Source: an uncultured Actinomycetes bacterium
Lineage (GTDB): Bacteria; Actinomycetota; Thermoleophilia; Solirubrobacterales; 70-9
DNA length: 64,000 nt
Reading direction: 5' to 3'
Assembly: GCA_937907435.1 (NCBI GenBank)
Contig: CALCIA010000137.1
Span: 39,212-103,211, forward strand
The position numbers were made by a program, and so were the translations under genes. Numbering within the stretch: position 1 is the first letter of the stretch; each line of letters begins with the position of its first letter. Shown here one piece after another: positions 16,674-45,738 of the stretch. The notes beneath the pieces are model-generated. The model had not been told where the DNA came from and did no database searches. It saw only the letters and a program-made list of their open reading frames with translations.

Positions 16674-19087
16674 GGTCCCGACGAGGAGTCTGCGCCCGCC
16701 GTCTCGGTAACCGCCGGGAGCCGCGCCCGCTTCAGGAGCAGGGCGTTGACGGCGACGATGAAGCTCGACCCCGACATCGACAGTGCCGCAATCTCCGGGC
16801 GTAGCTCGAGCCCCAGCCAGGGTTGGAACACCCCCGCCGCGATCGGCAGGGCGACCGAGTTGTAGCCGATCGCCCAGCCAAGGTTCTGGTGCATTTTCCG
16901 CAGCGTCGCGCGGCCGATCGCCAGCGCGACCGGGACGTCGAGCGGGTCGGACCGCATCAGGACGACATCGGCGGTCTCGATCGCGACGTCGGTGCCGGCG
17001 CCGATAGCGATCCCGAGGTCGGCCTGGGCCAGGGCGGGGGCGTCGTTGACGCCGTCGCCGACCATCGCCACCTTGCGGCCGCCCTGCTGCAGCTCGCTCA
17101 CCTGCGCGGCCTTGTCGCCCGGCAGCACCTCGGCGATCACCGTGTCGATCCCGAGGCCGTCGGCTATCCGCCTCGCCGTCGCCTCGTTGTCGCCGGTCAA
17201 CATCACGACCTGGACGCCGGCCTCGTGCAGTGCGGCGACCGCGGCGGCGGAGGTCTCGCGAGGTGCGTCGGCGATCCCGATCACCGCCGCACCGCGGCCG
17301 TCGATGCCGACGAGCACGGCGGTCCGACCATCGGCAGCCATTTCGTCGCGGCGCCCGGCGAGGGAGCCGAGGTCGATCCCACGCTGCTCCATCAGCCGGC
17401 GGTTGCCGACCGCGACCGAGCGTCCTTCCACGGTGGCGAGAGCTCCATGGCCGGGCACGTTCTCGAACCCGCGGGGCTCGGCGCCGTCGGCACCCGCAGC
17501 CTCGGCGCGGCGCACGATCGCCGCCGCCAGGGGGTGCTCGGAGGAGCGCTCGACCGCTGCGACGATCCGCAGCAGCTCGGCTTCCCGGAAGCCGTCGCCG
17601 ACGACTACGTCGGTGACCTCGGGTTCGCCCTTGGTGAGCGTCCCGGTCTTGTCCATCACGACGGTGTCGATCCGGGCCGACGTTTCGAGCGCGATCGCGT
17701 TCTTGAAGAGGACGCCGCGTTTGGCGCCGAGGCCGGAGCCGACCATGATCGCCGTCGGCGTCGCCAGTCCGAGCGCGTCGGGGCAGGTGATGACCACCAC
17801 GGTGATCGCGAAGAGGATCGCGGTCGAGGTCGGTTCGGAGCTGAAGATCGCCCAGGCGGCGAAGGTGGCGGCGCCGCCGATCAGGGCGACGAGCACCAGC
17901 CAGAAGGCGGCGCGGTCGGCGAGCTTCTGCCCGGGAGCCTTCGAGTTCTGCGCCTCCTGGACGAGCTTGACGATCTGCGCCAGCGCCGAGTCGGCGCCGA
18001 CCTTGGTCGCCCGCACCCGCAGCGTCCCGTTGGCGTTGATCGTCGCGCCGATCACCTCCGAGCCCACCCCCTTGTGGACGGGCAGGCTCTCCCCGGTCAC
18101 CATCGACTCGTCGACCTCACTCTCGCCGTCGGTGACGACGCCGTCGACGGCGATCTTCGACCCGGGTCTCACCACCAGCAGGTCGCCCACGGCCACCTGC
18201 TCGGTCGGGATCTCGACCTGCTCGCCGTCGCGGAGCACCAGCGCCTTCGAGGGCGCCAGGTCGAGCAGGGTGCGGATCGCGTCGTTGGCGCCGCCGCGGG
18301 CACGCATCTCGAACCAGTGGCCGAGCAGGACGAAGGCGGCGAGGACGCTGGCCGCCTCGTAGAAGACGTCGCCGCCGCCGGTGAGGGTGACGCCGACCGA
18401 GTAGAGCCAGCCGGCCCCGACCCCCACCGCGACCAAGACCATCATGTCCAGGGTGCGCGCGCGTAGCGCCCGCAGCGCGCCGACAAAGAAGATCGAGCAC
18501 GAGTAGAAGATCACCGGCAGGCTGAGGATCAGCGTGAAGACGTCCTCGCGCAGGCCGAACGGCGGCGCGACGTGGAAGCCGAAGACGTCGGCGCCGATCT
18601 TCGACCACAACAGGATCGGCACCGAGAATACGGCGGCGACCAGGAAGCGGTTGCGCATGTCGGCGACCATCGAGGCCATCGACATCTCGCCGTGACCGCC
18701 GTGGCCCATGACCTCGTCGGGCGTGCCCCGCATCTGACCCTCCGGCTCTTGCCGCTCGGCCGGGGCGTGCACGTGCCCAGGCACCATCGCCGCGGCCAGA
18801 GGCGCAGGCGGATCGGGCTCCATCAGCGGATCGCAGACGTGCTCGGGCACCGACTGGCCTGCGCAGTGGTAGCCGCACTCGACGATCCAGTCGCGCAACT
18901 CCTCGACCGAGGCCTGCCCGGGGTCGTAGGTGACCGTGGCGGTCTGGGCGACCGGATTGGCCTCGACCTCGAGGACCCCCGGCCGTCGCCCGACCGCCGA
19001 CTCGACCACCGTCTTCTCCGAGGCTCGCAGCATGCCGCTCGCCTCGAGCACGACGGTCTCGGTCCCGCCGTCGGTCGGCGGACTCAT
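16670..19087 (-). CDS. CopB-like (P1B-3-like) heavy-metal P-type ATPase with CPD motif
   Basis: Degenerate HMA without CxxC ([10 protein letters not shown]). His/Met-rich stretch [38 protein letters not shown] (codon GAC verified on the DNA), [17 protein letters not shown]. Start set at ATG 19087. Confidence 0.9.
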
Positions 19088-19224
19088 GTAACGGCTCCAC
19101 GATCCACGCGGCTCACGTCCCCGAGCATCGCAGCCGTTTCGCTTCGCGGCATCGCCCCATGGTCCCGAGGCCGTCCCCATGGGAGGCTTGCGGCGGCGTG
19201 GCCCATGGACGAGACAAAAGCTCC

Positions 19225-19245
19225 ATAACTACATTATGTAGGAGC
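19225..19245. promoter_or_regulatory. palindromic operator site S2
   Basis: ATAACTACattatGTAGGAGC. 17 nt are identical to S16. On the minus strand CATAAT forms a -10-like box and an ATG lies 2 nt after the GTAG half. Confidence 0.7.
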
Positions 19246-20591: not shown

Positions 20592-21122
20592 TCAGGCCGC
20601 TGAGTCGGGAGAGACCGGGATGGCGCAGGCACGTCGCGCGCCACGCAGGCGGACGAACAGCGCGGCGCCGGCCATCATCAGCCCCGCCGCGCCGAGGAAG
20701 GGCTGCATCGGGGCAAAGTAGTTGAAGGCGCCGGAGACGCCGAGCAGCGCGACCACGAGCTTGTTGCAGACCGGACAGCCGACGGCGAGCAGGCCGAGGA
20801 ATCCGCTGCCGGCGCTCGCGGCCGCGATCCGGTCGCGGGTCTCACGCGGCAGCACGTAGGTAGCCAGCAGGATCCCGGTCATGATGCTGCTACCGACCCA
20901 GAAGAAATAGTTGCCGGTTTCGGCGGGGATCATCCGCACGAACCAGGGATTGGGGACGATGTCGGTCGGGATCCCGAGCGCAAGCGCGACCAGGGCGATG
21001 CCGAGGATGGCGGTGATCAGAAAGCGTGGGCCCAGCAGCGAGAACAGCGTGGGCCGCTCATCGAATGGTTCCGTGGGTGTGGTGAAGGCTTCCATCGTGC
21101 GGGAAAGCGGGTCTGTGACCAC
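20592..21122 (-). CDS. 4-TM membrane protein with intramembrane CPVC motif
   Basis: 176 aa with hydrophobic helices. GLLAVGCPVCNKLVVALLGVSG. Start ambiguous (GTG 21122 or ATG 21095). Confidence 0.6.
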   Translation of the reverse strand: MVTDPLSRTMEAFTTPTEPFDERPTLFSLLGPRFLITAILGIALVALALGIPTDIVPNPWFVRMIPAETGNYFFWVGSSIMTGILLATYVLPRETRDRIAAASAGSGFLGLLAVGCPVCNKLVVALLGVSGAFNYFAPMQPFLGAAGLMMAGAALFVRLRGARRACAIPVSPDSAA

Positions 21123-21142
21123 ATCCTACAGACCGTAGGAAG
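21122..21142. promoter_or_regulatory. palindromic operator site S3
   Basis: CATCCTACagaccGTAGGAAG (perfect TCCTAC-N5-GTAGGA). Abuts the start of the CPVC membrane protein gene. Confidence 0.7.
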
Positions 21143-21171: not shown

Positions 21172-22134
21172 TCAGCCCTGGCAGGAGTGCGAGCCGCCCG
21201 CCGCAGCGACCGAGGCGACCCCGTCCCGGGCAAGGGCCGGGGTCGCGGCCGCCGTCAGGACGACCAGCGCGACAAGGCTGACGACGAGGGCACGGCCTGA
21301 GAGCTCCACCCAGGCCCGGGGGCGGGCTTTGGTGCGGTCGAGCAGGAAGCGCAGCCGCGCAGCCGTTCCGACCCCGGCAAGGCCGGCAAGCGCCGGACTG
21401 GTCGGCGGTTGGCCTGCGGCGGCTTTGCAGATCGCGCTCGCCAGGGCGACCGGATCGCCGACCCGGCCCACCGCGTACTCGTCGGCGTCGCGCTCGAGGC
21501 AGAACCGGAGCCTTCCGAGCGCGTCGTTGCTGCCGGGAAGCACCCGCGCCAGGGCGAAGGCCACGCTTCCCGCCAAGGCCAGGTAGGGGTGTCGGTGGGC
21601 GATGTGGCCGCGCTCGTGCTCGAGCCCGGCCGCCAGCTCCCCTTCGTCGAGCTTCGCCAGGGCACCGGTGGAGACGATGATCCTGGCGTCGCGGATGCCG
21701 GCGGCGGCGACGACGACATCGGGGCCGCCGATGATCAGGCTCTGGCGGGGTCCCTCGCCGAGGCAGTTGCGGTGAAGCCAACGACGCACGGTGCGGGCGG
21801 TGCGCCAGACGGCGAACACGGCCCAGATCAGCGAGAGGCCGAGGACGAGACCTGGGAGCAGGGTGGCAGCGTCCCCGAGCCGATGGCCCGAGAAGCCCAG
21901 GTGGGTCGCGAAGAAGGGGAGGACCGCGTGGATGCACCAGTGGGTGGTGAGTTGGAAGAGCTGGGTCGCCGGAAGGTAGAGGACGAGGACCAGGGCGCCG
22001 ACGACGACAAGAAGGGCGCGCAGGACGAGCACCGATAACCAGATCGCGGCACCCGTCAGCGGCGTGAGCGCGTCGCGGGGAAGAAGATAGGGAACGGCCG
22101 TCCCGAGCAGGAGCAGGCCGGCGAGGACGATCAT
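21172..22134 (-). CDS. M56 family (BlaR1/MecR1-like) membrane metalloprotease, no sensor domain (pair 1)
   Basis: N-terminal TM helices, HERGHIAHRHP (HExxH), 320 aa with no penicillin-binding domain. Start overlaps the BlaI-like stop (ATGA). Confidence 0.85.
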   Translation of the reverse strand: MIVLAGLLLLGTAVPYLLPRDALTPLTGAAIWLSVLVLRALLVVVGALVLVLYLPATQLFQLTTHWCIHAVLPFFATHLGFSGHRLGDAATLLPGLVLGLSLIWAVFAVWRTARTVRRWLHRNCLGEGPRQSLIIGGPDVVVAAAGIRDARIIVSTGALAKLDEGELAAGLEHERGHIAHRHPYLALAGSVAFALARVLPGSNDALGRLRFCLERDADEYAVGRVGDPVALASAICKAAAGQPPTSPALAGLAGVGTAARLRFLLDRTKARPRAWVELSGRALVVSLVALVVLTAAATPALARDGVASVAAAGGSHSCQG

Positions 22135-22535
22135 CTCGACTTCTTGCCGCCGCGCCTCGCCGCCACCTCGCGGGCGAGCGCCTCGATCTCGTCGAGCTCA
22201 CCCGGGTCCATGTCACCGACGAGGTGGGCCAGCGCCGTACGGCGGGCGCCGTCGGAGGCCGACGCCAAGGTCTCCTGCACCGAGCGCGAGTAGTAGTCGC
22301 CCTCGCTGACCTTCGTCGCGTAGAAGATCGCCTTGCCCTGGCGCTGGCGGACCAGCAGGCCACGCTCGGCAAGGCGGTTGAGCACGGTCTGCACGGTCGT
22401 ATAGGCGCCGCGTTGGCGGTCGGGAAGCTCGTTGCGGACATCGTCGACGCTGGCCGCCCGACCGAGCCGCCAGAGCGCCCTCATCACCTCGATCTGCAAC
22501 TCGCCCTGTAGCTGGACTGCGGTTTCGCGGGCCAT
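22131..22535 (-). CDS. BlaI/MecI/CopY family winged-helix repressor (pair 1)
   Basis: LQIEVMRALWRLGRAASVDDVRNEL...AYTTVQTVLNRLAERGLLVRQRQGKAIFYATKV. Start set at ATG 22535. Confidence 0.85.
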   Translation of the reverse strand: MARETAVQLQGELQIEVMRALWRLGRAASVDDVRNELPDRQRGAYTTVQTVLNRLAERGLLVRQRQGKAIFYATKVSEGDYYSRSVQETLASASDGARRTALAHLVGDMDPGELDEIEALAREVAARRGGKKSR

Positions 22536-22541
22536 CGTCAG

Positions 22542-22562
22542 AAGCCTACATGGCGTCGGGAC
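22542..22562. promoter_or_regulatory. palindromic operator site S4 (autoregulatory position)
   Basis: AAGCCTACatggcGTCGGGAC. On the minus strand it reads GTAGGCTTctgacgATG, i.e. TAGGCT -10-like box 7 nt before the BlaI-like start. Confidence 0.5.
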
Positions 22563-22639
22563 GCCTTCCTCCTGACGCCATGTCGTCGGCCGCAACACAG
22601 GTTGCAGGTGTCAGCCGCGGAACCCGTCACCCAAGGTAG

Positions 22640-22660
22640 GTTCCTACAGTGTGTAGGGAT
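22640..22660. promoter_or_regulatory. palindromic operator site S5
   Basis: GTTCCTACagtgtGTAGGGAT. 66 nt upstream of the M23/cyclase operon. Confidence 0.7.
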
Positions 22661-22725
22661 TGAGCCACCGGGTGTGCCGTTGTCGTCCGGGCAGCGGCAT
22701 ACCCGGTGGCTTGATCGTCCCTCCG

Positions 22726-23943
22726 ATGCCGCCCGAAAACGACAGACGAACGCCGGCCCTGGCGGCGATCGCGTTCGCCCTCCTGCTCGGCGGCGCGGTG
22801 ATCGTCTCGGCAATCGCCTATTCGCCTGTCGCCAGCGCGACCACCCGGTCCCGGCTCGAAAGCGCGCAGGCCAAGCTCGAAAAGACCGAAGAACGCGAAG
22901 GGGTCCTGACCACCACCCTGTCCCGCTTCGACGACCGGATCGCGGGCCTGGAACGACGGACCGCGGCGTTGCGCGGACGCGAGGCGGCGGTCGGTGAAGA
23001 GCTCGCGGCAAGACAGGCGGAACTGGAAGGCGCCGAAGCCGCCGTCGGACAGGCAAGGCACCACCTCGAGGTGGTGCGCGGCCGGCTGAAGCGGGCGCTG
23101 ATCGTCCTGCGGGACCGGCTCGTGGCGATCTATGAGAACGGGAGCCCGGACATCGTCAGCATCCTGGTCTCCTCCGGCGACATGTCGGAACTGGCCGCCA
23201 CGAGCGAATACGTCTCCCGGATCCAGAGCGCCGACGAAGCGGTCGTCGACCGCGTCCGCTCGCTGCGTGATCAGGCGAGCCGCACGACGCTGCGGCTGGA
23301 GGGCGCAGCGACACAGATCGAAGCCGCGCGCGACCAGATCGCCGCGCGTGAGCACGAACTTGCCCAGGCGCGGGCATCCGTCGAGGCCCGTCAAGGGGAA
23401 CTGGTCGCCACCCGCGCCGACCGTCAGAGCACGCTCGATCAGGTGGAAGTCGAGGCCGACCACTTCGGCGCCAACGTGCGGGCGCTGCAACAGAAGATCG
23501 CCGAAGAAATCACCCAGGCATCCTCGTCGGTGCCATTGCCCGCGGGACCGGCGGCGGGCGGGATCAGCTCCAGCGGCCTGATCTGGCCGGTGGAAGGGGT
23601 GATCACCTCCGGGTTCGGGCCGCGCTGGGGCAGCTTCCACCCCGGCATCGACATCGGGGTGCCGGAAGGGACGCCGATCAAGGCCGCGGCGTCGGGCACG
23701 GTCGTCCTCCTGCAATCGGAGGCCGAAAGCGGCGGCTACGGCAACTACACCTGTATCGACCACGGCGGGGGGCTCTCGACCTGCTACGCCCACCAGACGG
23801 AATTCGCGACCTCGCTGGGCGCAAGCGTGAGCCAGGGTGAAGTGATCGGATATGTCGGCAACACCGGCTTCAGCACCGGCCCACACCTTCATTTCGAGGT
23901 CCGCGTCGAAGGCGAACCGCAAGACCCGCTCGGCTACCTCTAG
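22726..23943 (+). CDS. coiled-coil M23 family peptidoglycan metalloendopeptidase (paralog of 2004..3170)
   Basis: Signal anchor, coiled coil, WPVEGVITSGFGPRWGSFHPGIDIG...GNYTCIDH...GNTGFSTGPHLHFEV. Start set at ATG 22726. Confidence 0.9.
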   Translation: MPPENDRRTPALAAIAFALLLGGAVIVSAIAYSPVASATTRSRLESAQAKLEKTEEREGVLTTTLSRFDDRIAGLERRTAALRGREAAVGEELAARQAELEGAEAAVGQARHHLEVVRGRLKRALIVLRDRLVAIYENGSPDIVSILVSSGDMSELAATSEYVSRIQSADEAVVDRVRSLRDQASRTTLRLEGAATQIEAARDQIAAREHELAQARASVEARQGELVATRADRQSTLDQVEVEADHFGANVRALQQKIAEEITQASSSVPLPAGPAAGGISSSGLIWPVEGVITSGFGPRWGSFHPGIDIGVPEGTPIKAAASGTVVLLQSEAESGGYGNYTCIDHGGGLSTCYAHQTEFATSLGASVSQGEVIGYVGNTGFSTGPHLHFEVRVEGEPQDPLGYL

Positions 23944-23948
23944 TCACC

Positions 23949-24623
23949 GTGACCGATCAAACGTTCATCTTCGCCGACATGTCGGGCTTCGCGGCGTTGA
24001 CCGAGGCGCACGGGGACGAGGCGGCGGCCGACCTGGCCGCCGACTTCTCCGCCGCGGTACGGCCGCGGCTGGAAAGGCGCGAGGCCGAGGAGGTGAAGAG
24101 CATCGGCGATGCACTGATGATCCGCGGCGAGGACGCGGGCGAATCGATCGGCCTCGGCCTGGAAATCGTCCACGAGGTCGGCGGCCAGCACCGTTTCCCG
24201 ACGATCCGAGTCGGTATGCATACCGGGCCCGCGACCGAGCGAGAGGGCGATTGGTTCGGCTCCACCGTCAATCTTGCCGCGCGGATCGCCGGGGAGGCCG
24301 CCGGTGGCGAGGTGCTGGTATCGGAGTCCACGCGCTCGGCCCTGGCGCGCCCGGAGCGGTTCAACTTCCGCGAGCGCGGGCGTGTCCATCTACGGAACAT
24401 CTCCGAGCCGGCCCTGCTGTTCTCGGTGCTACGGCGGGGTCTGCTGGCGACCGGCGATCTGCCCCTCGATCCGGTCTGCCGCATGGCCATCGATCCGGAG
24501 GGCTCGGCCGGCTCGCTCGAGCACCGCGGCACGGCTTACATCTTCTGTTCGCTCGCCTGCGCGGAGCGCTTCGCCGCCGACCCCGAGCTCTTCGCCGGTA
24601 GGCCCGGCGCCGAGCACGGCTGA
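23949..24623 (+). CDS. class III adenylate/guanylate cyclase domain fused to a C-terminal YHS (TRASH-type) metal-binding domain
   Basis: FIFADMSGFAALTE, KSIGDALM, VGMHTGPA, TVNLAARI (cyclase motifs). Then DPVCRMAID...GTAYIFCSLACAERFAADPELF (YHS). Confidence 0.85.
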   Translation: MTDQTFIFADMSGFAALTEAHGDEAAADLAADFSAAVRPRLERREAEEVKSIGDALMIRGEDAGESIGLGLEIVHEVGGQHRFPTIRVGMHTGPATEREGDWFGSTVNLAARIAGEAAGGEVLVSESTRSALARPERFNFRERGRVHLRNISEPALLFSVLRRGLLATGDLPLDPVCRMAIDPEGSAGSLEHRGTAYIFCSLACAERFAADPELFAGRPGAEHG

Positions 24624-24647
24624 GCCCACGTCTCGGCTTCGAGAGTC

Positions 24648-24679
24648 GTGGCCGGCCCCGATTGGGCGAGGCCGGCCAC
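24648..24679. terminator. 10-bp-stem hairpin between convergent genes
   Basis: GTGGCCGGCC-N12-GGCCGGCCAC between the cyclase-YHS gene (+) and DUF305 gene (-). Confidence 0.4.
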
Positions 24680-24686
24680 GCGCGGG

Positions 24687-25298
24687 TCAACCCTTCGGGA
24701 CGCCACCCGCCGGCGACGGCGCGCCGTACCACTCGGTGCGCCACGTGTTCATCTCGCGGATCTCCTTCGCCTGGGCGCGGACGATCCCCCTGGCGAGGCT
24801 CCGCAACTGCCCGTCGGCGCCGCGCTTCAGCTCGACACGGGCCATCCGGATCGCCCCCTGATGATGGGGGATCATCATGTCGATGAACTCTCGGTCGAAG
24901 GGTTTCGCGCCGTCGAGGTCGCCCATTTCCATATCCATGCCGGCCTGCTTCATCGTCAGGCCGAGGGTGTCGAGGCCTTCCATCATCGCCATGTGATCGC
25001 CGGTGCTGACGGGCTTCACGCCGAGGCTCCTGGCGATCTTCTTCAGCTGGACGATCTCTTCAGACTGTGCTTTGACGATCGCCCTCGCGGTCGACTTGAT
25101 CTGGCCGTGTTCGGCCTGATCGATCGCCATCCGGGCCATTTCGATGGCCATCTCGTGGTGCATCGGCATCTCGCTCACGAATGCCTTGTCGGTCGCATTG
25201 GCGGCGGGGGCGGCGGAAGCGCTAGTGGCTCCGAGGCCGGCCAGGACGGCCAGGGCCAGGACGGCCGCGAGCAGGGCCCGTCTCTTGATCTGCTTCAT
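24687..25298 (-). CDS. DUF305 secreted protein (copy 2)
   Basis: Signal peptide. FVSEMPMHHEMAIEMA and FIDMMIPHHQGAIRMA repeats. Tail WYGAPSPAGGVPKG resembles that of copy 1. Confidence 0.85.
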   Translation of the reverse strand: MKQIKRRALLAAVLALAVLAGLGATSASAAPAANATDKAFVSEMPMHHEMAIEMARMAIDQAEHGQIKSTARAIVKAQSEEIVQLKKIARSLGVKPVSTGDHMAMMEGLDTLGLTMKQAGMDMEMGDLDGAKPFDREFIDMMIPHHQGAIRMARVELKRGADGQLRSLARGIVRAQAKEIREMNTWRTEWYGAPSPAGGVPKG

Positions 25299-25375
25299 CG
25301 GTGGATCTCCTTTGTCTTGAGTCGGTGCAGGCGAGTGCTACCCCGGTCAGGCCGGGGTAGCCGTGACGCCGTCGA

Positions 25376-25774
25376 TCAAGTTCGGAGAACCGAGAGCCGT
25401 AGGTAGAGGGGTCCCGCTCTCGCGCGAGGACTCGGCGAGGGCGGGACCCTGGGCAGCCGCCGCGGGGCACGCGACAGCGAGGGTCGAGGCCGGCCCGGCC
25501 GGTGTGTCCGCGGACGGGCGACGAGGAGGGCGACACCGCCGATGACGGCAAGGCAGATGCTCCCTGCCATGCCGTCCATTCCCTTGGGCTCGACGTGGTG
25601 CGTGACGATCAGGCCGCCGAGTGCGAGCACGGCCAGCAGCAGAAGAAGGCGCCGGCGCGTACCGCGCGGCGCCGCGCGTAGCCGTAGGACCACGCCTGCA
25701 TCGCCGGCCGTCGGGGAGTGGTGCGCCTGGCCTTGCATCCTCCATATAGATAGCAACGTCGCACCTCCGGTCAT
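25376..25774 (-). CDS. small 2-TM His-rich membrane protein (paralog 3 of 3)
   Basis: LLLLLAVLALGGLIVTHHVEPKGMDGMAGSICLAVIGGVALLV...ARAGPLYLRLSVLRT. Start ambiguous (ATG 25774 or 25738). Confidence 0.55.
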   Translation of the reverse strand: MTGGATLLSIWRMQGQAHHSPTAGDAGVVLRLRAAPRGTRRRLLLLLAVLALGGLIVTHHVEPKGMDGMAGSICLAVIGGVALLVARPRTHRPGRPRPSLSRAPRRLPRVPPSPSPRARAGPLYLRLSVLRT

Positions 25775-25794
25775 ATCCTACGTCGCGTAGGATG
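25774..25794. promoter_or_regulatory. palindromic operator site S6
   Basis: TATCCTACgtcgcGTAGGATG (perfect TCCTAC-N5-GTAGGA) in a 25-nt divergent gap. TAGGAT lies 6 nt before GTG 25800. Confidence 0.7.
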
Positions 25795-25799
25795 CGCGG

Positions 25800-27311
25800 G
25801 TGAGTTCGCGGGTCGAGACCACCACCGACATCCGGTTCCTGGCGATCGTCGTCTTCGTCGTCGGCGCTGCCAGTCTCGGCACCGAGATCGCCGCGGCGCG
25901 GCTCCTCGCCCCTTACTTCGGTGCCTCGACGATCGTCTGGGCCAACATCATCGGCGTCGTCCTCGTGGCCCTTGCGGTCGGTTACTGGCTCGGCGGCCGC
26001 TTCGCCGACCGCCATCCGAGTCTGCGAGGGCTCTGCGCGATCGTGATGCTCGCCGCCGTCCTGCTGGCGTTCGTCCCCTTCGCCGCCCGGCCGTTCCTCG
26101 GCGTCTCGATCGACGCGCTGGCGTCGATCGAAGCGGGAGCATTCCTCGGCTCGCTGCTCGGGGTGCTCGTGCTCGTCTCGGTGCCCGTGATGCTGCTCGG
26201 GGCCGCCGCGCCCTACGCGCTGCGGCTGGCGGTCACCGACGTGGAGCGCTCAGGTGAGGTCGCGGGCCGCCTCTACGCGATCTCGACCGGAGGCTCGCTG
26301 GTCGGGACGATGCTGGCCGCGCTCTTCCTTATCCCCTTCGCCGGGACGCAGCGGACCTTCCTCACCTTCGCCGTGGCACTCGGTGTCGTCGGCAGCCTCG
26401 GGCTCGGCCCTCGTTTCCTGGTCGTCCCCGCCCTACTCGGCGCGCTGACGCTCCTGACGGTGGGCGCGATCAAGGGCGCCGGGGACGGGCACGTCCTCTT
26501 CGAAACCGAGACCCCCTACCAGTACGCCCGCGTGGTCGAACACGCCGGCGGCGAACGGGTGCTCGAACTGAACGAGGGGCAGGCGGTCCATTCCGTCTAT
26601 GAGCCCGGCAGCTACCTCACCGGCAACTACTGGGACGGCTTCCTGGTCCTGCCGTTCGCCGCGTCGGGCCCGCCTCCCCGTCGGGTGCTGATGCTCGGCA
26701 GCGCCGCGGGGACCGTGGCGCGGGCATACGGCCACTTCTTCCCCGGGACCTGGTTCGACGCGGTCGAGATCGACGGCGAATTGACGACGATCGGCCGCCG
26801 CTACTTCGACCTGAGGAACCCGCGGATGCAGACCTACACCGAAGACGCCCGGCCTTTCCTCGCCACCGACGACCGTCGCTACGACGTGATCATGGTCGAC
26901 GCCTACCGCCAGCCCTACGTGCCGTTCTACCTGGTCACCCGCGAATTCTTCGGGCGGGTGCGCGAACACCTCGCCGTCGGGGGGAGCGTGATCGTGAACG
27001 TCGGCCATCCCGAAGGCAACGATGACCTCGAGCGCGTCGTCGGGCGGACGATGGCCGCGGTCTTCCCGGTCGTCCGGCGCGACCCGATCGAGCCGCTGAA
27101 CACGCTGCTGACCGCAAGCGTGGGCCCGGTCTCCGCCGCGAGCCTGCGCGACGCCCGGGGGTCGCTGCCGCCGGAACTTCGACGGCTCGGCAACGAAGTC
27201 GCCGGCGAGATCGGACCGCGTCTGCCGGGCGGCGAAATCTACACCGACGACCGGGCGCCGGTGGAATGGCTGGTCGACCTCTCGATCCTCGGTTACGCGA
27301 ATGAAAAGTGA
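25800..27311 (+). CDS. fused polytopic membrane domain / spermidine synthase-like (SpeE fold) protein
   Basis: N-terminal about 7 TM helices. C-terminal LMLGSAAGTVARAY...AVEIDGELT...VIMVDAYRQPYVPFYLVTREFF aminopropyltransferase-like domain. Confidence 0.85.
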   Translation: MSSRVETTTDIRFLAIVVFVVGAASLGTEIAAARLLAPYFGASTIVWANIIGVVLVALAVGYWLGGRFADRHPSLRGLCAIVMLAAVLLAFVPFAARPFLGVSIDALASIEAGAFLGSLLGVLVLVSVPVMLLGAAAPYALRLAVTDVERSGEVAGRLYAISTGGSLVGTMLAALFLIPFAGTQRTFLTFAVALGVVGSLGLGPRFLVVPALLGALTLLTVGAIKGAGDGHVLFETETPYQYARVVEHAGGERVLELNEGQAVHSVYEPGSYLTGNYWDGFLVLPFAASGPPPRRVLMLGSAAGTVARAYGHFFPGTWFDAVEIDGELTTIGRRYFDLRNPRMQTYTEDARPFLATDDRRYDVIMVDAYRQPYVPFYLVTREFFGRVREHLAVGGSVIVNVGHPEGNDDLERVVGRTMAAVFPVVRRDPIEPLNTLLTASVGPVSAASLRDARGSLPPELRRLGNEVAGEIGPRLPGGEIYTDDRAPVEWLVDLSILGYANEK

Positions 27312-27338
27312 CCTGAACCCCGAGGAGGGCCGCCGCCG

Positions 27339-28193
27339 ATGACCGCCTCGATCCCCAGCCCGAGCTCGAGTGGGCTCGCGGTCGGGCCCTTCGAAATCCA
27401 CGTCTACGGGCTGATGTACGCGATCGCGGTGGTCGCGGCGGTGCTGATCACGGTGCGCCGCTGGGAGGCCCAGGGCGGCTCGCGCGAGACCGTCTACGAC
27501 TGCGCCATCTGGGGCTTCCCGGCGGGTCTGATCGGCGGCCGCCTCTATTTCGACATCACCAGCTTCTCCGAAATGCCCCACACCTGGTGGGGTCCGTTCG
27601 CCGTCTGGGACGGCGGCCTGGGGATCTGGGGCGGGATCGCCCTCGGTACGGCAGTCGGCATCTGGCGGCTGCGCCGGGCAGGCGTCTCCGTTCCCGAGTT
27701 CATGGACGCGGCGGCGCCGGCGCTGCTGGTCGCCCAGGCGATCGGCCGGATCGGCAACTACTTCAACCAGGAGCTCTTCGGCGGGCCCACCAGCCTGCCG
27801 TGGGGCCTGGAGATCTCGGCCGCGCACCGGCCTGACGGCTACGCCGCCTACTCGACCTTTCAGCCAACCTTCCTCTACGAGTTGATCTGGAACCTCTGCC
27901 TAGCCGGCTTCCTGGTCTGGCTCGGACACCACCGCAGGATCCGCCCGCCCGGCCTCTTCGCTCTCTACGTCACCGGCTACTCGGCCTTCCGGATCTTCGA
28001 GGAGTCGCTGCGGGTCGATCCCGCCCACCACTTCCTCGGCCTGCGCCTCAACTTCTTCGTCGCCTGCATCCTCACGGTCGCCGGCGCCGTCTGGTTCATC
28101 GCCAGCCAACGGCGGGGACCGAAGTCGGCGGGCGAGGCGCCGGGGGAGCCGCGGCCGGCCCGAGATGTCGCTGTCCCTCGATCGGATCAGTAG
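27339..28193 (+). CDS. lgt: prolipoprotein diacylglyceryl transferase
   Basis: YGLMYAIAV..., GGRLYF, GGLGIWGGI, QAIGRIGNYFNQELFGGPT...PWGLEI, FQPTFLYE. GAGGAGGG SD. Confidence 0.9.
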   Translation: MTASIPSPSSSGLAVGPFEIHVYGLMYAIAVVAAVLITVRRWEAQGGSRETVYDCAIWGFPAGLIGGRLYFDITSFSEMPHTWWGPFAVWDGGLGIWGGIALGTAVGIWRLRRAGVSVPEFMDAAAPALLVAQAIGRIGNYFNQELFGGPTSLPWGLEISAAHRPDGYAAYSTFQPTFLYELIWNLCLAGFLVWLGHHRRIRPPGLFALYVTGYSAFRIFEESLRVDPAHHFLGLRLNFFVACILTVAGAVWFIASQRRGPKSAGEAPGEPRPARDVAVPRSDQ

Positions 28194-28314
28194 TCGCGCT
28201 TCTGCTCGGTCGGGCGGCGGACGAAGGGGTAGTGCGGTGTTGCGGTCGGGGCGGTAGCTGGTGCCGGTGAAGGTCTTGTCCCAGTGGCGTAGTAATCGCG
28301 CCTGTAGCTGACTC

Positions 28315-29091
28315 TCAGATCGCGCCCTCCAGCGCGAACAGGGCAATAAAGCCGACGAAGAACATCGCCGTCAGAAGCGGCGTCTCGGGGCCCTCGTGAG
28401 CCTCAACCAGCAGCTCCTCGGTGACCAGGTAGAGCAGCGCGGCGGCGCCGAAGGCGAGCACACCGGCGAGCAAGTCGGCGGAAGCGCCGGCAAGCAGCGC
28501 CGCGCCCCCGATCGCCCCCACGGCGACGCTGAGCGAGAGCAGGGAAGGAATCGCCGCCGCCCGGAATCGCGGCTCACCTGCCTTGGTCAGGCCGGCCGAC
28601 ATCGCCAGGGCCAGGAACAGCACCTCGAGCGTCAGCGCGATCGTGAGCACCCGGCCCTGGCTGGCGCCCAGGGTTACGCCGATGCCGACGAGCAAGCCGT
28701 CGATCAGGAGGTCGATGCCGATGGCGACAAGTAAGGCGATCGGCAGCGTCGGCCCTGCCTTCGCCGTTCGCTCGGCTCGTTCGGCGAACCTGCGAAGCAC
28801 GAGCAACACGATCACGCCGATCGAGAACCCGGCGACTACCGGCACCAGGGACTGATCGCGAATGTCGGGAAGAACCTCTCCCGCGACGGCCGCAAAGACG
28901 ACCCCCGCGGCGAAATGCTGGATCGCGCCGGTGGTCTTGGCCCCGGGCGGCCGCCAGGCCGCGAGGGTCGCCCCGATCACGGCAGCGGCGACCGGAAAGA
29001 GGACGAGCAGCGAAGCCTTGGCGACGACTCCGTCGCCCACGGGAGCGGACGACCTCCTACGCCGAGCTGCGCCGCAGGAGGCGCAGGGCAT
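28315..29091 (-). CDS. ZIP family divalent metal transporter (ZupT-like)
   Basis: HFAAGVVFAAVAGEVLPD, GVTLGAS, LEVLFLALAMSAGL, LYLVTEELLVEAHEG. Start uncertain (ATG 29091 or GTG 29040). Confidence 0.8.
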   Translation of the reverse strand: MPCASCGAARRRRSSAPVGDGVVAKASLLVLFPVAAAVIGATLAAWRPPGAKTTGAIQHFAAGVVFAAVAGEVLPDIRDQSLVPVVAGFSIGVIVLLVLRRFAERAERTAKAGPTLPIALLVAIGIDLLIDGLLVGIGVTLGASQGRVLTIALTLEVLFLALAMSAGLTKAGEPRFRAAAIPSLLSLSVAVGAIGGAALLAGASADLLAGVLAFGAAALLYLVTEELLVEAHEGPETPLLTAMFFVGFIALFALEGAI

Positions 29092-29418
29092 CGAGGGTGA
29101 CGAGGAGGGTCATGCCCATGTCGGCCGTCGAGCATCGTCTTCGAGCTCTGCGCGGTGAAGAAGTCGTTGCGGTCGACGACGACCTTCGGCCAGACCTCGA
29201 GCACGCCGCTGGTGCCGTGCAACGCCGGAGACCTTGGCCGGCATGCCCTGCAGCACGCCGCTGTCGATCAGCGCGGTGCGGATCTGGTTGCGAAGCGCGC
29301 CCAGGTTCTGGCGCCCTCTCCCGGAGCCCCGCACTTTCACACGCCCTCCATGATCGCTGGCGTTCGTACCCCGTCGACCCCACACATCGGGTATCCGGCC
29401 ATCGCCGGGGGGCCGTGC

Positions 29419-30114
29419 CTAGGCCGCCGGATCGGCCGGCGTCGGCCCGTTGAACGGGAAGGCTTCTGGCGGCTCGCCGCCGTATTTGCCCCAGGTTTCC
29501 TTGCCGAAGTCACGGATCGCGTCCTCGGTGAGCAGCGTCGCCGAGTACATCGAGTCGTAGAGCCCCTTCAGCGCCAGTTGGTCTTTTTCGGGCAGGCTGG
29601 GCGAGTATTGGATCTCCATCCGGCCGTGCTCGAGCGAGTGGACGAAGTCGATTTCTTCGGGCATTTTCGAGTAGGCGCCGTCGGCCTGCTGGTAGGGAGG
29701 TTCGACATGGGGGCCGGAGGTCGGCGGATTCGTTTCGTAGGGTGGCGTCGGCGAGCCCGGTGCGATGTGTTCGCTCCCCTCGTCGGAGAGGCCGAGACGA
29801 AGGGTGCAGCCGGCCTGCCTGGCGGCGGTCTTCAGGTCGGTGGCCTTGACCGGTTGCGGCTCCGTGCCGCTGCGCCCGTCTGGCGGGACCCCGTTGGTCG
29901 AGCCCGATTCGACGTTGATATGCGATGGGCCGCTGGCGGCGCCACCGCCGCTGGACACCGCCACCACGACGATCACGGCGATGACCACGACCAACACTAC
30001 GCCCGCCACCGCGGAGCCGAGCACCACGCGTTTGCGTTCGGTTTTGCGCTGGCGCTCTTCTTTTTCCAGGCGGAGCTGGCGGAGTCGTTCTTTCTCTTCC
30101 CTGCGGGTCGCCAT
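29419..30114 (-). CDS. membrane-anchored DUF3105-like protein
   Basis: N-terminal MATRREEKERLRQLRLEKEE plus a TM anchor. YETNPPTSGPHV...VHSLEHGRMEIQY motifs. Confidence 0.7.
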   Translation of the reverse strand: MATRREEKERLRQLRLEKEERQRKTERKRVVLGSAVAGVVLVVVIAVIVVVAVSSGGGAASGPSHINVESGSTNGVPPDGRSGTEPQPVKATDLKTAARQAGCTLRLGLSDEGSEHIAPGSPTPPYETNPPTSGPHVEPPYQQADGAYSKMPEEIDFVHSLEHGRMEIQYSPSLPEKDQLALKGLYDSMYSATLLTEDAIRDFGKETWGKYGGEPPEAFPFNGPTPADPAA

Positions 30115-30134
30115 ATGCTACGCGGCATAGTACT
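30114..30134. promoter_or_regulatory. palindromic operator site S7 (subclass B)
   Basis: TATGCTACgcggcATAGTACT. Touches the DUF3105 start codon. Minus strand reads AGTACTATgccgcGTAGCATATG. Confidence 0.55.
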
Positions 30135-30194
30135 CAAGACGGTCGTACTATTGCGTGCAGGAGGAGGAACGCGCTGCGGGAGGGCACGCGCGCT

Positions 30195-30831
30195 TTATTC
30201 GGGCTTGCGCGCCGCCACCCGCTCGACGATCCCCCACTTCGAGCGCTCCGGCTCGGTGACCTCGAAGCCGGCGGCGCCCAGGTACCCCAGCGTCTTGCGG
30301 GTCAGGTGATCGGCCGCGAAGCGGACGCTCAGCGGCTCCATGAGGCGCTCCGCCACGCGCACGGCCCGCACCGGGCTGCGGACGTGCTCGAGCACCGCGA
30401 AGAGCCCGCCCGTGCATAGGACGCGGAAGACCTCGCGGGCCGCGGCGCCCGGGTCGGGGATCGTGCAGAAGGCGAGGGTGCAGAGGACGCTGTCGAAGCT
30501 CGCGTCGGGAAAGTCGAGCGCCTGGGCGTCACCCACGCGGAGGTCCGCCTCGCGGCCGAGCTCCTGCTTCGGGATCGCCAGCATCTCGGGGCTCAGCTCG
30601 ATCCCGGTCAAGGTGACGTCGGCGCGATGGAGCGGCAGGTTTCGCCCGGTGCCGAGCGCGATCTCCAGCACCTAGCCCTCGGGTCGCGAGCAGGCCCACT
30701 CGCGCCCGCCCGCGAAGAGCACCCGATCGAAAAGGGCCATCTGGCGGTCGTAGCGCGGCCGCCTCCTTGTCCTGGAGGGCGCGGACGCGCTCGGTCTCCT
30801 TGCGTGTGGCGTCTGGGATCGGTTCAGCCAT
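30195..30831 (-). pseudogene. class I SAM-dependent methyltransferase with one frameshift and one in-frame TAG
   Basis: N-terminus MAEPIPDATRKETERVRALQDKEAA is in one frame. RYDRQMALFDRVLFAGGREWACSRPEG is in the next frame. TAG at 30672-30674 sits directly before VLEIALGTGRNLP... (SAM motif). Confidence 0.55.
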
Positions 30832-31780
30832 CGGCCCAGGCGCGCCGCCGCCGCAGCGCATGGCCGGAGAGGAGCAGTGCGGCTATCGCGAGGGTCGCAG
30901 GACCGCAGATCATCAGCCCGGCACAGGCCGCGGCGAGCAGCAGAGGCACCTGCAGGTTCGGATCGAGGATGCCGTGCCAGATCGAGAAGCTCGCCGCCAC
31001 CAGCGCCGCGAGCGCGAGCAGGCTGCGCGCCAACGGCGAGCTCGGGAGCCGCCAGCGTGTCACCTCGGGATCGCCCATCAGGTGATCGATGCGTTCGGGG
31101 GCCAGGCCGACGACCACAGCCGGCCGCCCCGAGGACTCCGAGAACTTGAGAAGGGCGGCGGCGAGCGGGGCGCGGCTGCCGCTCGCCGCCACCGCCGCCT
31201 CGTCGGCCGCAAGCTCGCCGAGCGCGGCATAGCGCTCGCTGCTGCGGCGCAGGATCGGGATGAAGAAGAGCGCGTCGGCAAGGGTGCGCGCCGCGAGCAG
31301 GCGCAGGGGGTCGCGGCGGCGCGCGTGGTGGGACTCGTGGAAGAGGACGGCGCGCAGCTCGGCCGGCTCGAGTTGCTCAACCGCACCTTGGCTCAGGTAG
31401 ACCTGGGGGCGCAGGTAGCCGGCGCAGAAGGCGCGCGGCTCGGAAGAGTCGATCAGCCGGCAGCCGACCCCCTCGATGTCGACCGACTCGGCGCTCGGCC
31501 GCTGGGCGATCAGGTAGCGTCGGCTGGCGCGAAGCTGGCGGCGAAGCGAGCGCGTTCCGAGGCCGAGGGCCGCAAGCGCCAGCACCGCGATCGAGAGCCC
31601 GAGCAGCGAGGCGGGTCCGCCGGCACCCAGCCAGTTTTCGCAGGCCGCCGAGATCGCCTGCGAGCTCGGGACGGCGAGGCTCTGCCTGGTGACGATCAGC
31701 GTCGCGGCGGCGGCGAGGAGGACCGCCGCCAGCGTCGCAAGCACCAAATGCAGGAGGTAGAGCCGCCCGGCGCCCCGCAT
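30824..31780 (-). CDS. M56 family (BlaR1-like) membrane metalloprotease, no sensor domain (pair 2)
   Basis: TM helices, LFHESHHARRRDP (HExxH), about 318 aa. ATG 31780 shares one base with the BlaI-like stop. Confidence 0.8.
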   Translation of the reverse strand: MRGAGRLYLLHLVLATLAAVLLAAAATLIVTRQSLAVPSSQAISAACENWLGAGGPASLLGLSIAVLALAALGLGTRSLRRQLRASRRYLIAQRPSAESVDIEGVGCRLIDSSEPRAFCAGYLRPQVYLSQGAVEQLEPAELRAVLFHESHHARRRDPLRLLAARTLADALFFIPILRRSSERYAALGELAADEAAVAASGSRAPLAAALLKFSESSGRPAVVVGLAPERIDHLMGDPEVTRWRLPSSPLARSLLALAALVAASFSIWHGILDPNLQVPLLLAAACAGLMICGPATLAIAALLLSGHALRRRRAWADG

Positions 31781-32169
31781 CAAGAACCTTTGGCGAGTTT
31801 TCGCAGCGCGGCACGGCGCTTGGGGTCGACGCTTCCGAGCTGACGGGCGAAGTGGGCGAGGGCGAGGTCGCCGTAGTCGGCGACCAACTCGTCGACCCTG
31901 CTCTGCGCGCGGGCCTCGAGGTACTCGTCACGGCTCATCGTCGGACGATAGAAGTGGGTCTTGCCTCGCTTCCGCCGCCGCAGGAATCCCTTTTTCTCAA
32001 GCCTCGCCATGATCGTCATGATCGTCGTGTAGGCGCGCTGCTTGCGGCCCGAGTTGAGCGTCTCCAGCACCTCACGCACGGTCGTCTCTTCGCGCTCCCA
32101 GACCTCCTCCATGACCTCCGACTCGAGTTCATGCAGCGGGGGTGGTCCTGGGCTTTGTCCTGTGGCCAT
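31780..32169 (-). CDS. BlaI/MecI/CopY family winged-helix repressor (pair 2)
   Basis: LESEVMEEVWEREETTVREVLETLNSGRKQRAYTTIMTIMARLEKKGFLRRRKRGKTHFYRPTM. Confidence 0.85.
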   Translation of the reverse strand: MATGQSPGPPPLHELESEVMEEVWEREETTVREVLETLNSGRKQRAYTTIMTIMARLEKKGFLRRRKRGKTHFYRPTMSRDEYLEARAQSRVDELVADYGDLALAHFARQLGSVDPKRRAALRKLAKGS

Positions 32170-32196
32170 TGCCGAAGTCTACTAAGCTGACAGCCA

Positions 32197-32217
32197 TCTA
32201 CTATGCTGCGTAGCACT
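32197..32217. promoter_or_regulatory. palindromic operator site S8 (subclass B)
   Basis: TCTACTATgctgcGTAGCACT in the divergent region between BlaI-like pair 2 and the 32229 gene. A TCTACTA direct repeat lies 20 nt upstream. Confidence 0.55.
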
Positions 32218-32228
32218 TTGAGGGGACG

Positions 32229-32876
32229 ATGACGAGCCGTACGGAAGAGAAGGAACGCCTTCGCGAGGCGCGCCTCGAGCGCCAACAGGCCGCCGAAGGA
32301 AGTGGGCGGAGACGGCTGTGGGCTTATGGGCTCGCGGCTGTCCTCGCGGTCCTCGTGATCGCCGGGTTCGTCGTGGCGATCGTCGGGGGCAGCGGTGGCG
32401 GCTCGAGCTCGGCCGACGTCGGCGGCGCCTTCGGCACGCACTACGAAGGCCTGGGCGAACGCGAGGCGGCCGCCAACGTCCCGACGATGATGGACACGAT
32501 GAGCAGCTCCTACCACGTCCATCCTCACATCGCCATCTACGTGGATGGCAGGCAGATCGCCGTGCCGCCGGACATCGGCATCGACCCGAGCCGACCGTCG
32601 ATGGAAATGGCCGGCCTCCACACCCACGACCCGAGCGGCACGATCCACGACGAGGGGATGCCGGGTTCCCGCCTCGGCCAGTTCTTCGCGGTCTGGGGCG
32701 TGCCGTTCTCGAATGGGCAGCTCGGCCCCTACAGATCCGATGGGCCGAAGACGGTCAGGATGTGGGTGGACGGCAGACCGTCGAACGCATTCGGGAACCT
32801 CCACCTCCAGGACGCCCAGCAGATCGTCGTCGCCTTCGGGACCCCGGCGCAGGTCCCGGCCGACGTGACGGGCTAG
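32229..32876 (+). CDS. membrane-anchored extracytoplasmic His-rich protein (unknown family)
   Basis: N-terminus MTSRTEEKERLREARLERQQ plus a TM anchor, paralogous to the DUF3105 N-terminus. YHVHPHIAIYVDG...GLHTHDPSGTIHDEG...FFAVWGV. Confidence 0.7.
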   Translation: MTSRTEEKERLREARLERQQAAEGSGRRRLWAYGLAAVLAVLVIAGFVVAIVGGSGGGSSSADVGGAFGTHYEGLGEREAAANVPTMMDTMSSSYHVHPHIAIYVDGRQIAVPPDIGIDPSRPSMEMAGLHTHDPSGTIHDEGMPGSRLGQFFAVWGVPFSNGQLGPYRSDGPKTVRMWVDGRPSNAFGNLHLQDAQQIVVAFGTPAQVPADVTG

Positions 32877-36751: not shown

Positions 36752-36772
36752 CGTACGACTAAGTGTAGTAGA
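36752..36772. promoter_or_regulatory. palindromic operator site S10
   Basis: CGTACGACtaagtGTAGTAGA, about 35-55 nt upstream of the 36719 start. Confidence 0.45.
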
Positions 36773-45728: not shown

Positions 45729-45738
45729 GGCGCCGGGC

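Follow-up and report, generated by a model that had tools for sequence, protein, structure and literature searches.

Repressor–protease pairs of the BlaI/BlaR1 kind are common in genomes, and most BlaIR-like systems have no β-lactam-binding domain (PMC13492132). In the Staphylococcus aureus prototype, BlaR1 cuts the repressor BlaI between N101 and F102, and its loop EL1 is the signalling loop (PMC9834060). Among the sensor-less pairs, a cue is known for PetR/PetP alone: in Synechocystis sp. PCC 6803, PetP degrades the BlaI-family repressor PetR only with copper, the PetR box is a GAC-N5-GTC inverted repeat, and the loop that joins transmembrane (TM) helices 2 and 3 of PetP is the proposed copper-ligand site (bioRxiv 10.1101/2020.07.31.226407). 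CopY, a member of the same repressor family, instead works without a protease and is itself the Cu(I) sensor, by way of a CxCxxxxCxC (or CxC) motif at its C terminus (PMC11672702, PMC7253601). Here we analyse two repressor–protease pairs encoded side by side on a 64,000-nucleotide stretch (hereafter the window) of contig CALCIA010000137.1 from an uncultured actinomycete. Both lie within a copper-resistance island, and each repressor very probably owns an operator class of its own, set apart by half-site spacing.

The four genes are as follows:

22131..22535, minus strand: repressor 1, a BlaI/MecI/CopY-family winged-helix protein of 134 aa with no cysteine
21172..22134, minus strand: protease 1, a BlaR1-type membrane Zn-metalloprotease of 320 aa with no sensor domain
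31780..32169, minus strand: repressor 2, a BlaI/MecI/CopY-family protein of 129 aa with no cysteine
30824..31780, minus strand: protease 2, an M56/M48 membrane Zn-metalloprotease of 318 aa with no sensor domain

In both pairs the repressor stop codon overlaps the protease start codon (ATGA in pair 1, TGATG in pair 2). The original prediction of two overlap-coupled repressor-then-protease operons is thus borne out by these overlaps, by the HExxH motifs of the proteases and by strong matches of the repressors to PF03965 (Penicillinase_R; 85.5 bits and 4.2e-24 for repressor 1, 97 bits and 1.1e-27 for repressor 2, against a cut-off of 22.6, with 111–113 of 115 model positions covered). The two repressors share 33% pairwise identity, are the only PF03965-like genes in the window, and have the same closest solved relative, Mycobacterium tuberculosis BlaI (2G9W; E values of 2.8e-15 and 2.2e-14, respectively), followed by other BlaI and MecI entries of the Protein Data Bank (PDB). 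Each belongs to a family of about 900–1,200 homologues, mostly from soil Solirubrobacterales (939 at E≤1e-10 for repressor 1). Cultured carriers of the system are Solirubrobacter soli DSM 22325, Svornostia abyssi J379 and Patulibacter brassicae (loci L082, L038 and L076). Public gene calls begin repressor 2 at an internal methionine (110 aa); the 129-residue form is the right one, since its N-terminal PPPLHELE is conserved in homologues. As in the mycobacterial system (Rv1846c and Rv1845c), the setting is actinobacterial, and repressor 2 has the HF motif of Rv1846c in common with it: its invariant H106-F107 aligns with that motif and with the N101-F102 cleavage site of BlaI. The reported regulon of M. 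tuberculosis BlaI (blaC, ATP synthase-linked and cell-division genes) is, however, not metal-related, and it is a single system. Mycobacterial BlaR is reported to be devoid of a sensor domain as well (Sala et al. 2009).

Neither repressor nor any aligned homologue contains a cysteine, the CopY/TcrY motif CxCxxxxCxC (or CxC) is accordingly not found in them, and the CopY/TcrY model TIGR02698 is matched at 52 bits against a cut-off of 122. The lack of cysteine excludes direct copper sensing of the CopY type. The Firmicute CopY/CopR repressors nevertheless belong to the same protein family, repress a copper P1B-ATPase and bind a TACA-N2-TGTA cop box, likewise of the TAC/GTA type; what sets the present pairs apart is the absence of cysteine from both repressors and the protease gene downstream. 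Each family has a recognition helix of its own that does not vary among its members (AYTTVQTVLNRL in repressor 1, AYTTIMTIMARL in repressor 2), and the positions at which the two differ would correspond to base-contacting residues of BlaI/MecI in MecI–DNA structures.

Two classes of inverted repeat with CTAC and GTAG arms stand out in the window. Its 64 kb contain eight copies of CTAC-N5-GTAG (N5, class A), where dinucleotide shuffles predict 0.17, and four perfect copies of CTAC-N8-GTAG (N8, class B), where 0.07 are expected, with two further copies carrying a GTAC arm; among spacings 0 to 13 of this dyad, only N5 and N8 are enriched. We compared the regions around relatives of each repressor in 80 genomic loci (repressor 1) and 80 metagenomic loci (repressor 2), mainly from Solirubrobacterales, counting unique upstream regions from −300 to +30 and setting aside as ambiguous the GTAGTAG overlaps that satisfy both spacings. 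Of the 78 upstream regions of the repressor-1 family, 27 carry a pure N5 dyad, one a pure N8 and none an ambiguous dyad; of the 76 of the repressor-2 family, none carries a pure N5, 39 carry a pure N8 and seven an ambiguous one (Fisher p = 7e-13, calculated from the initial counts before correction). The same partition holds over whole loci, with 144 pure N5, 8 pure N8 and 7 ambiguous dyads in 1.27 Mb around repressor 1, and 3, 93 and 29, respectively, in 0.44 Mb around repressor 2. Other spacings are at background in both upstream sets except N11, which is enriched because CTACTAC arms overlap. When all 4-mer inverted repeats with spacers of 2–11 are ranked, CTAC-N5 comes first in the repressor-1 set (relatives of at least 55% identity) and CTAC-N8 first in the repressor-2 set. 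A repressor-2 gene is also present in only 1 of the 80 repressor-1 loci, so the association does not come from genes that travel together.

Besides their spacing, the classes differ in what is conserved around the arms: the N5 consensus, TCCTACR-N3-YGTAGGA, has conserved outer flanks, and the N8 consensus, CTACGAyGCrTCGTAG-like (CTACGA-N4-TCGTAG), has conserved inner bases and free flanks. Class B had been proposed as a distinct subclass. Its separate standing is upheld, and the distinction lies in spacing and flanks rather than in base substitution. The view of its sites as class A dyads that carry a single mismatch (CTAt-N5-GTAG) was given up, as the orthologous sites have CTAC-N8-GTAG, conserved inner GA/TC and no TC/GA flanks. 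Two other apparent signals were set aside: in repressor-2 loci, what looks like an N5 dyad is mostly an N8 site with a GTAGTAG overlap, and a TGAC-N4-GTCA ‘operator' in distant repressor-1 homologues is conserved N-terminal coding sequence.

Taken together, these comparisons indicate that each repressor very probably owns its operator class, repressor 1 the N5 and repressor 2 the N8 dyads, in line with the earlier proposal, which comparative genomics supports, of two paralogous repressors with diverged specificity. It is very improbable that the dyads belong to another regulator, or that their assignment is crossed or shared between the two repressors. The arms are common to both classes, GTAGTAG sites fit both spacings (29 in repressor-2 loci and the site at 42083 in the window), and a second conserved element with no known binder, GCAAC-N4-GTTGC, lies upstream of repressor 1. 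Against these points, the association is near-exclusive (27:1 against 0:39) and holds in loci with one repressor only, and the CsoR encoded in the window has different boxes of its own. The dyad geometry also fits operators of the family, namely TACA-N2-TGTA for CopY, GAC-N5-GTC for PetR and GTCTAT-N5-ATAGAC for a BlaI of Clostridium thermocellum. In the latter organism, motifs of the BlaI proteins were shown by DNA affinity purification sequencing and electrophoretic mobility shift assay, one of them being inverted repeats 5 nt apart (PMC8457756). Its BlaI_0696 and BlaI_1845 resemble the present case in comprising two paralogues with BlaR1 partner(s), autoregulation and motifs of their own; they differ in that the regulons span 1–3 operons and the paralogues are told apart by half-site sequence, not spacing.

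Some repressor-2 loci show further arrangements. In distant ones (4459–5769 of locus L163, 4486–5814 of L147 and nine others), a gene for an M56-like protein of about 440 aa, on the strand opposite to the repressor gene, lies directly behind an N8 dyad; in those loci the dyad of repressor 2 abuts its own ATG (ttgCTACACTnCGTCGTAGatg), which suggests leaderless transcripts. In a group of orthologues of 75–85% identity (L085–L092), repressor 2 does not come first; some (for example L089) have a small DUF2933-like ORF ahead of it, and two tandem N8 dyads 13 nt apart lie upstream (for example at 5697 and 5726 of L087).

All eight perfect N5 copies of the window lie outside annotated genes, 2–48 bp 5′ of a candidate start codon; they are listed here together with the imperfect dyad S4:

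19229..19241: N5 operator CTACATTATGTAG, upstream of the gene for a CPD-type CopB-like ATPase, 16670..19180 (minus strand)
21126..21138: perfect N5 operator S3, 3 bp upstream of the gene for a 176-aa protein, 20592..21122 (minus strand)
22644..22656: perfect N5 operator S5, in the stretch from which repressor 1 and an M23 peptidase gene diverge
25778..25790: N5 operator upstream of the operon of a spermine-synthase-like gene and Lgt, 25800..28193 (plus strand)
39363..39375: N5 operator 14 bp upstream of a methyltransferase gene, 39390..40076 (plus strand)
42083..42095: N5 operator 13 bp upstream of a redoxin/TlpA-like gene, 42109..42798 (plus strand)
45270..45282: N5 operator upstream of CcmE-CcmF-Lgt, 45303..49159 (plus strand)
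50137..50149: N5 operator upstream of a methyltransferase gene, 49189..50112 (minus strand)
22546..22558: S4, an imperfect dyad CTACATGGCGTCG with a GTCG arm

The CCTAC..TGTAGG block of S5 is invariant in the aligned upstream regions of nine orthologues and lies at −102 to −125 in close ones. At S4, only the half TGTAGGCT (gene orientation) is conserved in the nine aligned orthologue regions, 8–10 nt before the ATG, and looks like a TAnnnT −10 element rather than a full dyad. The claim that pair 1 is flanked by class A dyads therefore stands for S3 and S5, both perfect, and falls for S4. The operator at 45270 lies inside a perfect 23-bp palindrome, TACTCCTACGTTGCGTAGGAGTA (45265–45287), and the operon behind it encodes CcmE, CcmF and a protein of 438 aa whose C-terminal half carries an Lgt domain.

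Between the N5 operator and the start of repressor 1, the upstream region also contains the inverted repeat GCAAC-ACAG-GTTGC (22592–22605). Its TGCAA..TTGCG is invariant in nine orthologous repressor 1 upstream regions while its distance to the ATG varies, and it may be the site of another factor or a promoter element.

The N8 class is represented at six places:

32198..32213: N8 operator S8, CTACTATGCTGCGTAG, 28 bp from repressor 2 and 15 bp from the divergent gene for a 215-aa protein, 32229..32876
30118..30133: N8 operator S7 with one GTAC arm; the ATG of the DUF3105 gene, 29419..30114 (minus strand), is 3 bp away
37824..37839: N8 operator S11, 44 bp upstream of the CcdA/DsbD-TM gene, 37042..37779 (minus strand)
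36753..36768: N8 operator GTACGACTAAGTGTAG with a mismatch in one arm, lying 33 bp upstream of the DUF2933 gene, 36480..36719 (minus strand)
36968..36983: N8 dyad CTACGGATGAGCGTAG, in the CcdA–DUF2933 intergenic gap
16027..16042: N8 operator CTACGACATCACGTAG, between a receiver-domain gene, 15535..15999 (minus strand), and a DUF1360 gene, 16146..16673 (plus strand)

An 18-nt form of class B had been described before the DUF3105 gene, the gene at 32229 and ccdA. It is indeed found exactly at these three places (30116, 32198 and 37822, against 0.06 expected); the class is nevertheless not confined to them, as the members at 16027, 36753 and 36968 show. The S8 layout is the same in an 88%-identical orthologue (L084), and an orthologue of the S7 site precedes the DUF3105 gene in L087.

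The target families of both classes recur in other genomes. The genes found there behind a dyad are:

Behind N5 dyads: repressor 1 itself (22 loci), M23 peptidase (17), methyltransferases (12), homologues of the 176-aa protein (12), C39-like peptidase (11), P1B ATPase (9), a cyclase-YHS fusion (4), DUF305 (3)
Behind N8 dyads: repressor 2 (35 loci), additional M56 genes (11), the 215-aa protein (7), DUF2933 (5), DUF3105 (2)

Other N5 targets include a polysaccharide deacetylase-like protein and FliL. The ATPase encoded at 16670–19180 has CPD in place of CPC/CPH in its metal-binding helix, YN(X)4P as YNSVALP, and MSGSS, a combination described as that of a CopB-related Cu-ATPase subtype (PMC5552934). 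Its N terminus is His/Met-rich, and its HMA domain is degenerate and without CxxC. The CPD motif is found in eight of the nine N5-preceded ATPases elsewhere (L004, L006, L011, L013, L016, L035, L036 and L038).

The proteases share the elements of a BlaR1-like catalytic domain. The HExxH motif is HERGH at residues 173–177 of protease 1 and HESHH at 149–153 of protease 2, with conserved acidic residues downstream (E214/D216/D218 and E190/D194, respectively), and predicted TM helices flank the catalytic domain in both, in a positive-inside arrangement. Neither has a Pfam match to a transpeptidase/penicillin-binding protein or β-lactamase domain, and the proteins end 19 (protease 1) and 14 (protease 2) residues past the last predicted TM helix; the penicillin-binding sensor domain is thus missing, as had been claimed. 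That both are M56 enzymes proved true of protease 2, which passes PF05569 (Peptidase_M56; 42 bits against a cut-off of 31, 8.2e-11). Protease 1 misses this threshold and matches only the M48 model PF01435 (28.6 bits), although its homologues bear the NCBI label ‘M56 family metallopeptidase' and BlaR1 is its best fold match. BLAST likeness between the two is confined to the surroundings of HExxH; an hhalign comparison of the two family profiles (98.8% probability, 161 columns) shows a common catalytic core.

An AlphaFold2 model of protease 1 (mean predicted local distance difference test score, pLDDT, 82; predicted template modelling score, pTM, 0.80) retrieves S. aureus BlaR1 structures (8EXQ, 8EXS, 8EXP and 8EXR) as its top Foldseek matches, ahead of Ste24 and HtpX (probability 1.0, E~1e-3, template modelling score 0.42–0.51). 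BlaR1 is also among the fold matches of protease 2, whose model is weak (pLDDT 69): a mixed profile of the two families returned only family 1, so that protease 2 was modelled with distant sequences.

The likeness to the S. aureus systems BlaI/BlaR1 and MecI/MecR1 (PDB 8EXP–8EXT, 1SD4 and 1OKR) extends from the repressors, which are of the same Pfam family and alignable with BlaI and MecI, to the TM and zinc-metalloprotease domain nearest to the protease 1 model, with its HExxH and downstream acidic ligand. Dyads 5′ of their own operons suggest autoregulation, as for BlaI, and repressor 2 keeps an x-F at the position of N101/F102. By contrast, the present pairs have no C-terminal penicillin-binding domain and no β-lactamase or PBP2a target; identity to BlaR1 is 10–12% only, the operators differ in half-site and spacing, and protease 1 falls below the Pfam M56 threshold.

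In another view, the proteases would be HtpX-like membrane quality-control enzymes that are simply co-transcribed with the repressors, and the repressors would leave DNA by another route, such as binding of a small ligand or a metal, without cleavage. The M48-only match of protease 1 speaks for it, as do profile searches of the PDB by sequence, which return an HtpX fragment alone for both protease families, and the absence from repressor 1 of the Phe of the BlaI scissile bond. We nevertheless consider it improbable. Nearly all homologues, in the one family as in the other, retain the overlapping repressor-then-protease order (a protease ORF of about 300–325 aa lies downstream of 75 of 80 repressor-1 homologues and of 40 of 40 repressor-2 homologues with a readable downstream ORF), BlaR1 surpasses Ste24 and HtpX as a fold match, the cysteine-free repressors have few histidines and offer no obvious metal site, and the characterised BlaI–BlaR pairs compared here are all proteolytic.

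Outside the catalytic core, the best-conserved part of protease 1 is the loop between predicted TM2 and TM3, with conserved residues H65-W66-C67-x-H69, H78 and G83-H84. A nearly invariant C318 is located in the short tail past the last TM helix, where BlaR1 would have its sensor. Protease 2 has conserved cysteines at 48, 120 and 287, of which C48 and C287 are on the predicted outer side and, in a joint alignment of 24 sequences, share columns with C67 and C318 of protease 1. No covariation of C67 with C318 was seen in protease 1; C318 is retained even where C67 is lost.

Both pairs are embedded in a metal island. It encodes three P1B ATPases, two DUF305 proteins, a cyclase-YHS fusion and CopC-CopD; DUF2933, DUF3105, CcdA/DsbD-TM and a TlpA-like redoxin; CcmE-CcmF, two Lgt genes and a ZIP transporter; M23, C39-like and NlpC/P60-like hydrolases and an L,D-transpeptidase; several methyltransferases; and a canonical CsoR-CopZ-CopA module. 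Of 64 repressor-1 loci, 35 have metal markers in their flanks, as do 7 of 16 repressor-2 loci; CopCD, DUF305 and YHS genes recur.

With confidence only a little better than even, we read the two pairs as separate proteolytic switches of the PetR/PetP kind in a copper island, with copper or copper-caused damage as the cue. Dimers of repressor 1 would bind TCCTACR-N3-YGTAGGA operators at or just upstream of at least eight transcription unit starts, covering the CPD-type CopB-like Cu-ATPase, the 176-aa protein, its own operon and the divergent M23 peptidase gene, the spermine-synthase-like gene with Lgt, two methyltransferases, the TlpA-like redoxin and CcmE-CcmF. Dimers of repressor 2 would bind CTAC-N8-GTAG upstream of its own operon and the divergent 215-aa gene, DUF3105, DUF2933, CcdA and the receiver/DUF1360 pair. 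Each repressor, presumably co-translated with its own membrane Zn-metalloprotease, would be cut by it in the cytoplasm upon an extracytoplasmic cue, and its regulon thereby derepressed. The cue would most likely be copper or copper-caused thiol or envelope damage, which protease 1 could read through its TM2–TM3 His/Cys loop, at the position of the BlaR1 EL1 signalling loop, together with its C-terminal cysteine, and protease 2 through its conserved cysteine pair. Cytosolic Cu(I) would be handled apart by CsoR-CopZ-CopA.

Copper is proposed because of the gene context (CPD-type CopB-like ATPase, CopCD, DUF305 and CcdA) and because the repressors lack cysteine while protease 1 has a conserved His/Cys-rich outer loop. 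The original prediction had held the signal to be unknown for want of a sensor domain; absence of a sensor is, however, the norm in BlaIR-like systems, and PetR/PetP offers a copper precedent. Likened by its published description, PetR/PetP also combines a BlaI/CopY-family regulator without the CopY cysteine motif with an adjacent sensor-less M48/M56 protease, an N5 inverted repeat (GAC-N5-GTC in that system, TAC-N5-GTA in the case of repressor 1), a copper-related regulon and candidate ligands between TM2 and TM3. It differs in phylum, in scale (four genes of a plastocyanin/cytochrome c6 switch there, multi-operon copper resistance and envelope biogenesis here) and in its candidate ligands, which are Met there and His/Cys here. 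Moreover, two paralogous systems stand side by side here, the second with N8 spacing, and the link to copper comes from context.

Several observations weigh against this reading. A perfect dyad is found in only 27 of 78 repressor-1 and 39 of 76 repressor-2 upstream regions, and homologues of less than 55% identity mostly have none; a scan with the sigma-70 consensus found no promoter. Repressor 1 carries H/Q-L instead of H-F at the BlaI cleavage position. The TM topology comes from a simple hydropathy script, and the protease 1 model is of low confidence in the outer loop (pLDDT ~55) and C-terminal tail (<50). About 45% of repressor-1 loci (29 of 64) have no metal marker nearby, and among the conserved N5 targets many are not metal proteins but enzymes of the envelope or methyltransferases. 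Finally, literature searches returned no paper on these actinobacterial families, their operators or a copper-island link.

The low-confidence loop and tail, the hydropathy-only topology and the envelope-enzyme targets make a cue of another kind a serious rival, albeit an unlikely one. The wiring would be the same, and the signal would be general envelope or thiol-redox damage, or another metal such as Zn or Ag; such a system would resemble CenI/CenR of Clostridioides difficile (PMC13492132). That sensor-less BlaIR-family pair, whose signal is unknown, controls a peptidoglycan hydrolase and an L,D-transpeptidase, and envelope hydrolases (M23 and C39-like) are conserved N5 targets here; CenIR is, on the other hand, essential, from a Firmicute and without metal genes. 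Beyond this precedent and the marker-free loci, an envelope cue draws strength from the most widely conserved N5 targets (M23, methyltransferases, the 176-aa protein and C39-like), from the deacetylase-like and FliL targets, and from an island in which Lgt occurs twice beside the L,D-transpeptidase, NlpC/P60-like protein, CcdA, redoxin and CcmEF. Copper is favoured by the Cu-type ATPase, a direct N5 target in nine genomes, by the recurrence of CopCD, DUF305 and YHS genes nearby, by the outer-face His/Cys clusters, which are typical metal ligands, and by the fact that the sole sensor-less BlaR-like protease with a known cue answers to copper.

Overall, the evidence supports the wiring well; the signal proposed here is a reasoned guess. 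Sensor-less BlaI/BlaR pairs, paralogous BlaI repressors with separate motifs and the copper-responsive PetRP are already known. As far as we can tell, the separation of paralogues by N5 and N8 spacing, regulons that span many operons, a CPD-type ATPase among the targets and the His/Cys loop as a candidate minimal sensor are new. The loci offer a natural example of two paralogous repressors separated by half-site spacing, and their clear operators, reconstructable regulons and candidate ligand residues make sensing by sensor-less BlaR proteases directly testable. Should the cue be copper, the view of how Actinobacteria sense this metal, now centred on cytosolic CsoR/RicR, would change, and copper stress would be linked to genes of lipoprotein, peptidoglycan and cytochrome c maturation.

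A bolder version, which we offer tentatively and hold to be possible rather than probable, is that these pairs are the first described case of actinobacterial copper sensing at the membrane's outer face by regulated proteolysis. The His/Cys loop and C-terminal cysteine would replace the penicillin-binding domain of BlaR1, and two channels would be split purely by N5/N8 spacing. One would serve efflux and wall remodelling (CPD-type CopB-like ATPase, M23 and C39 hydrolases, Lgt, CcmEF and redoxin), the other periplasmic copper and thiol handling (DUF2933, DUF3105 and CcdA, with CopCD nearby). If true, this would add a further Gram-positive copper-sensing route beside CsoR, CopY, CueR and two-component systems.

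The remaining features concern the window at large, whose base composition is 70% G+C and whose nearest genomes are metagenome-assembled genomes of Solirubrobacterales/Thermoleophilia. A megablast of 21 kb against plasmids gave short Lgt matches only and no annotated relative. The copper module of the island comprises:

12559..~12860, minus strand: CsoR, with RIEGQxRG and C...H...C motifs
12937–13185: CopZ-like HMA protein with MTCGHC
ending at 15497: CPC-type CopA
12873 and 12905: CsoR-type boxes TACCCCTGGGGGGTA and TACCCCCTAGGCGTA, respectively, in the divergent region of the module

Together with the two repressor–protease pairs, this module makes three separate regulatory systems in the island. 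The presence of System I cytochrome c maturation parts in a copper island without other Ccm genes is unusual for an actinobacterium.

Two cyclic di-AMP (ydaO) riboswitches were found, at 38618–38775 and 1820–1973 (both minus strand; 77 and 73 bits, respectively). The former is the leader of the NlpC/P60-like gene 37999–38616, and an imperfect N5 dyad, CTACGGCGTGTCG (38797), as well as TACAGACTTGTA (38785), lie just upstream of it.

The cyclase-YHS fusion joins an adenylate/guanylate cyclase domain to a metal-binding YHS domain:

23949–24623, plus strand: adenylate/guanylate cyclase domain fused to a YHS domain

It could be a metal-responsive nucleotide cyclase; at 13 of 64 loci a homologue of it is found close to repressor 1, and homologues come directly after N5 dyads in four.

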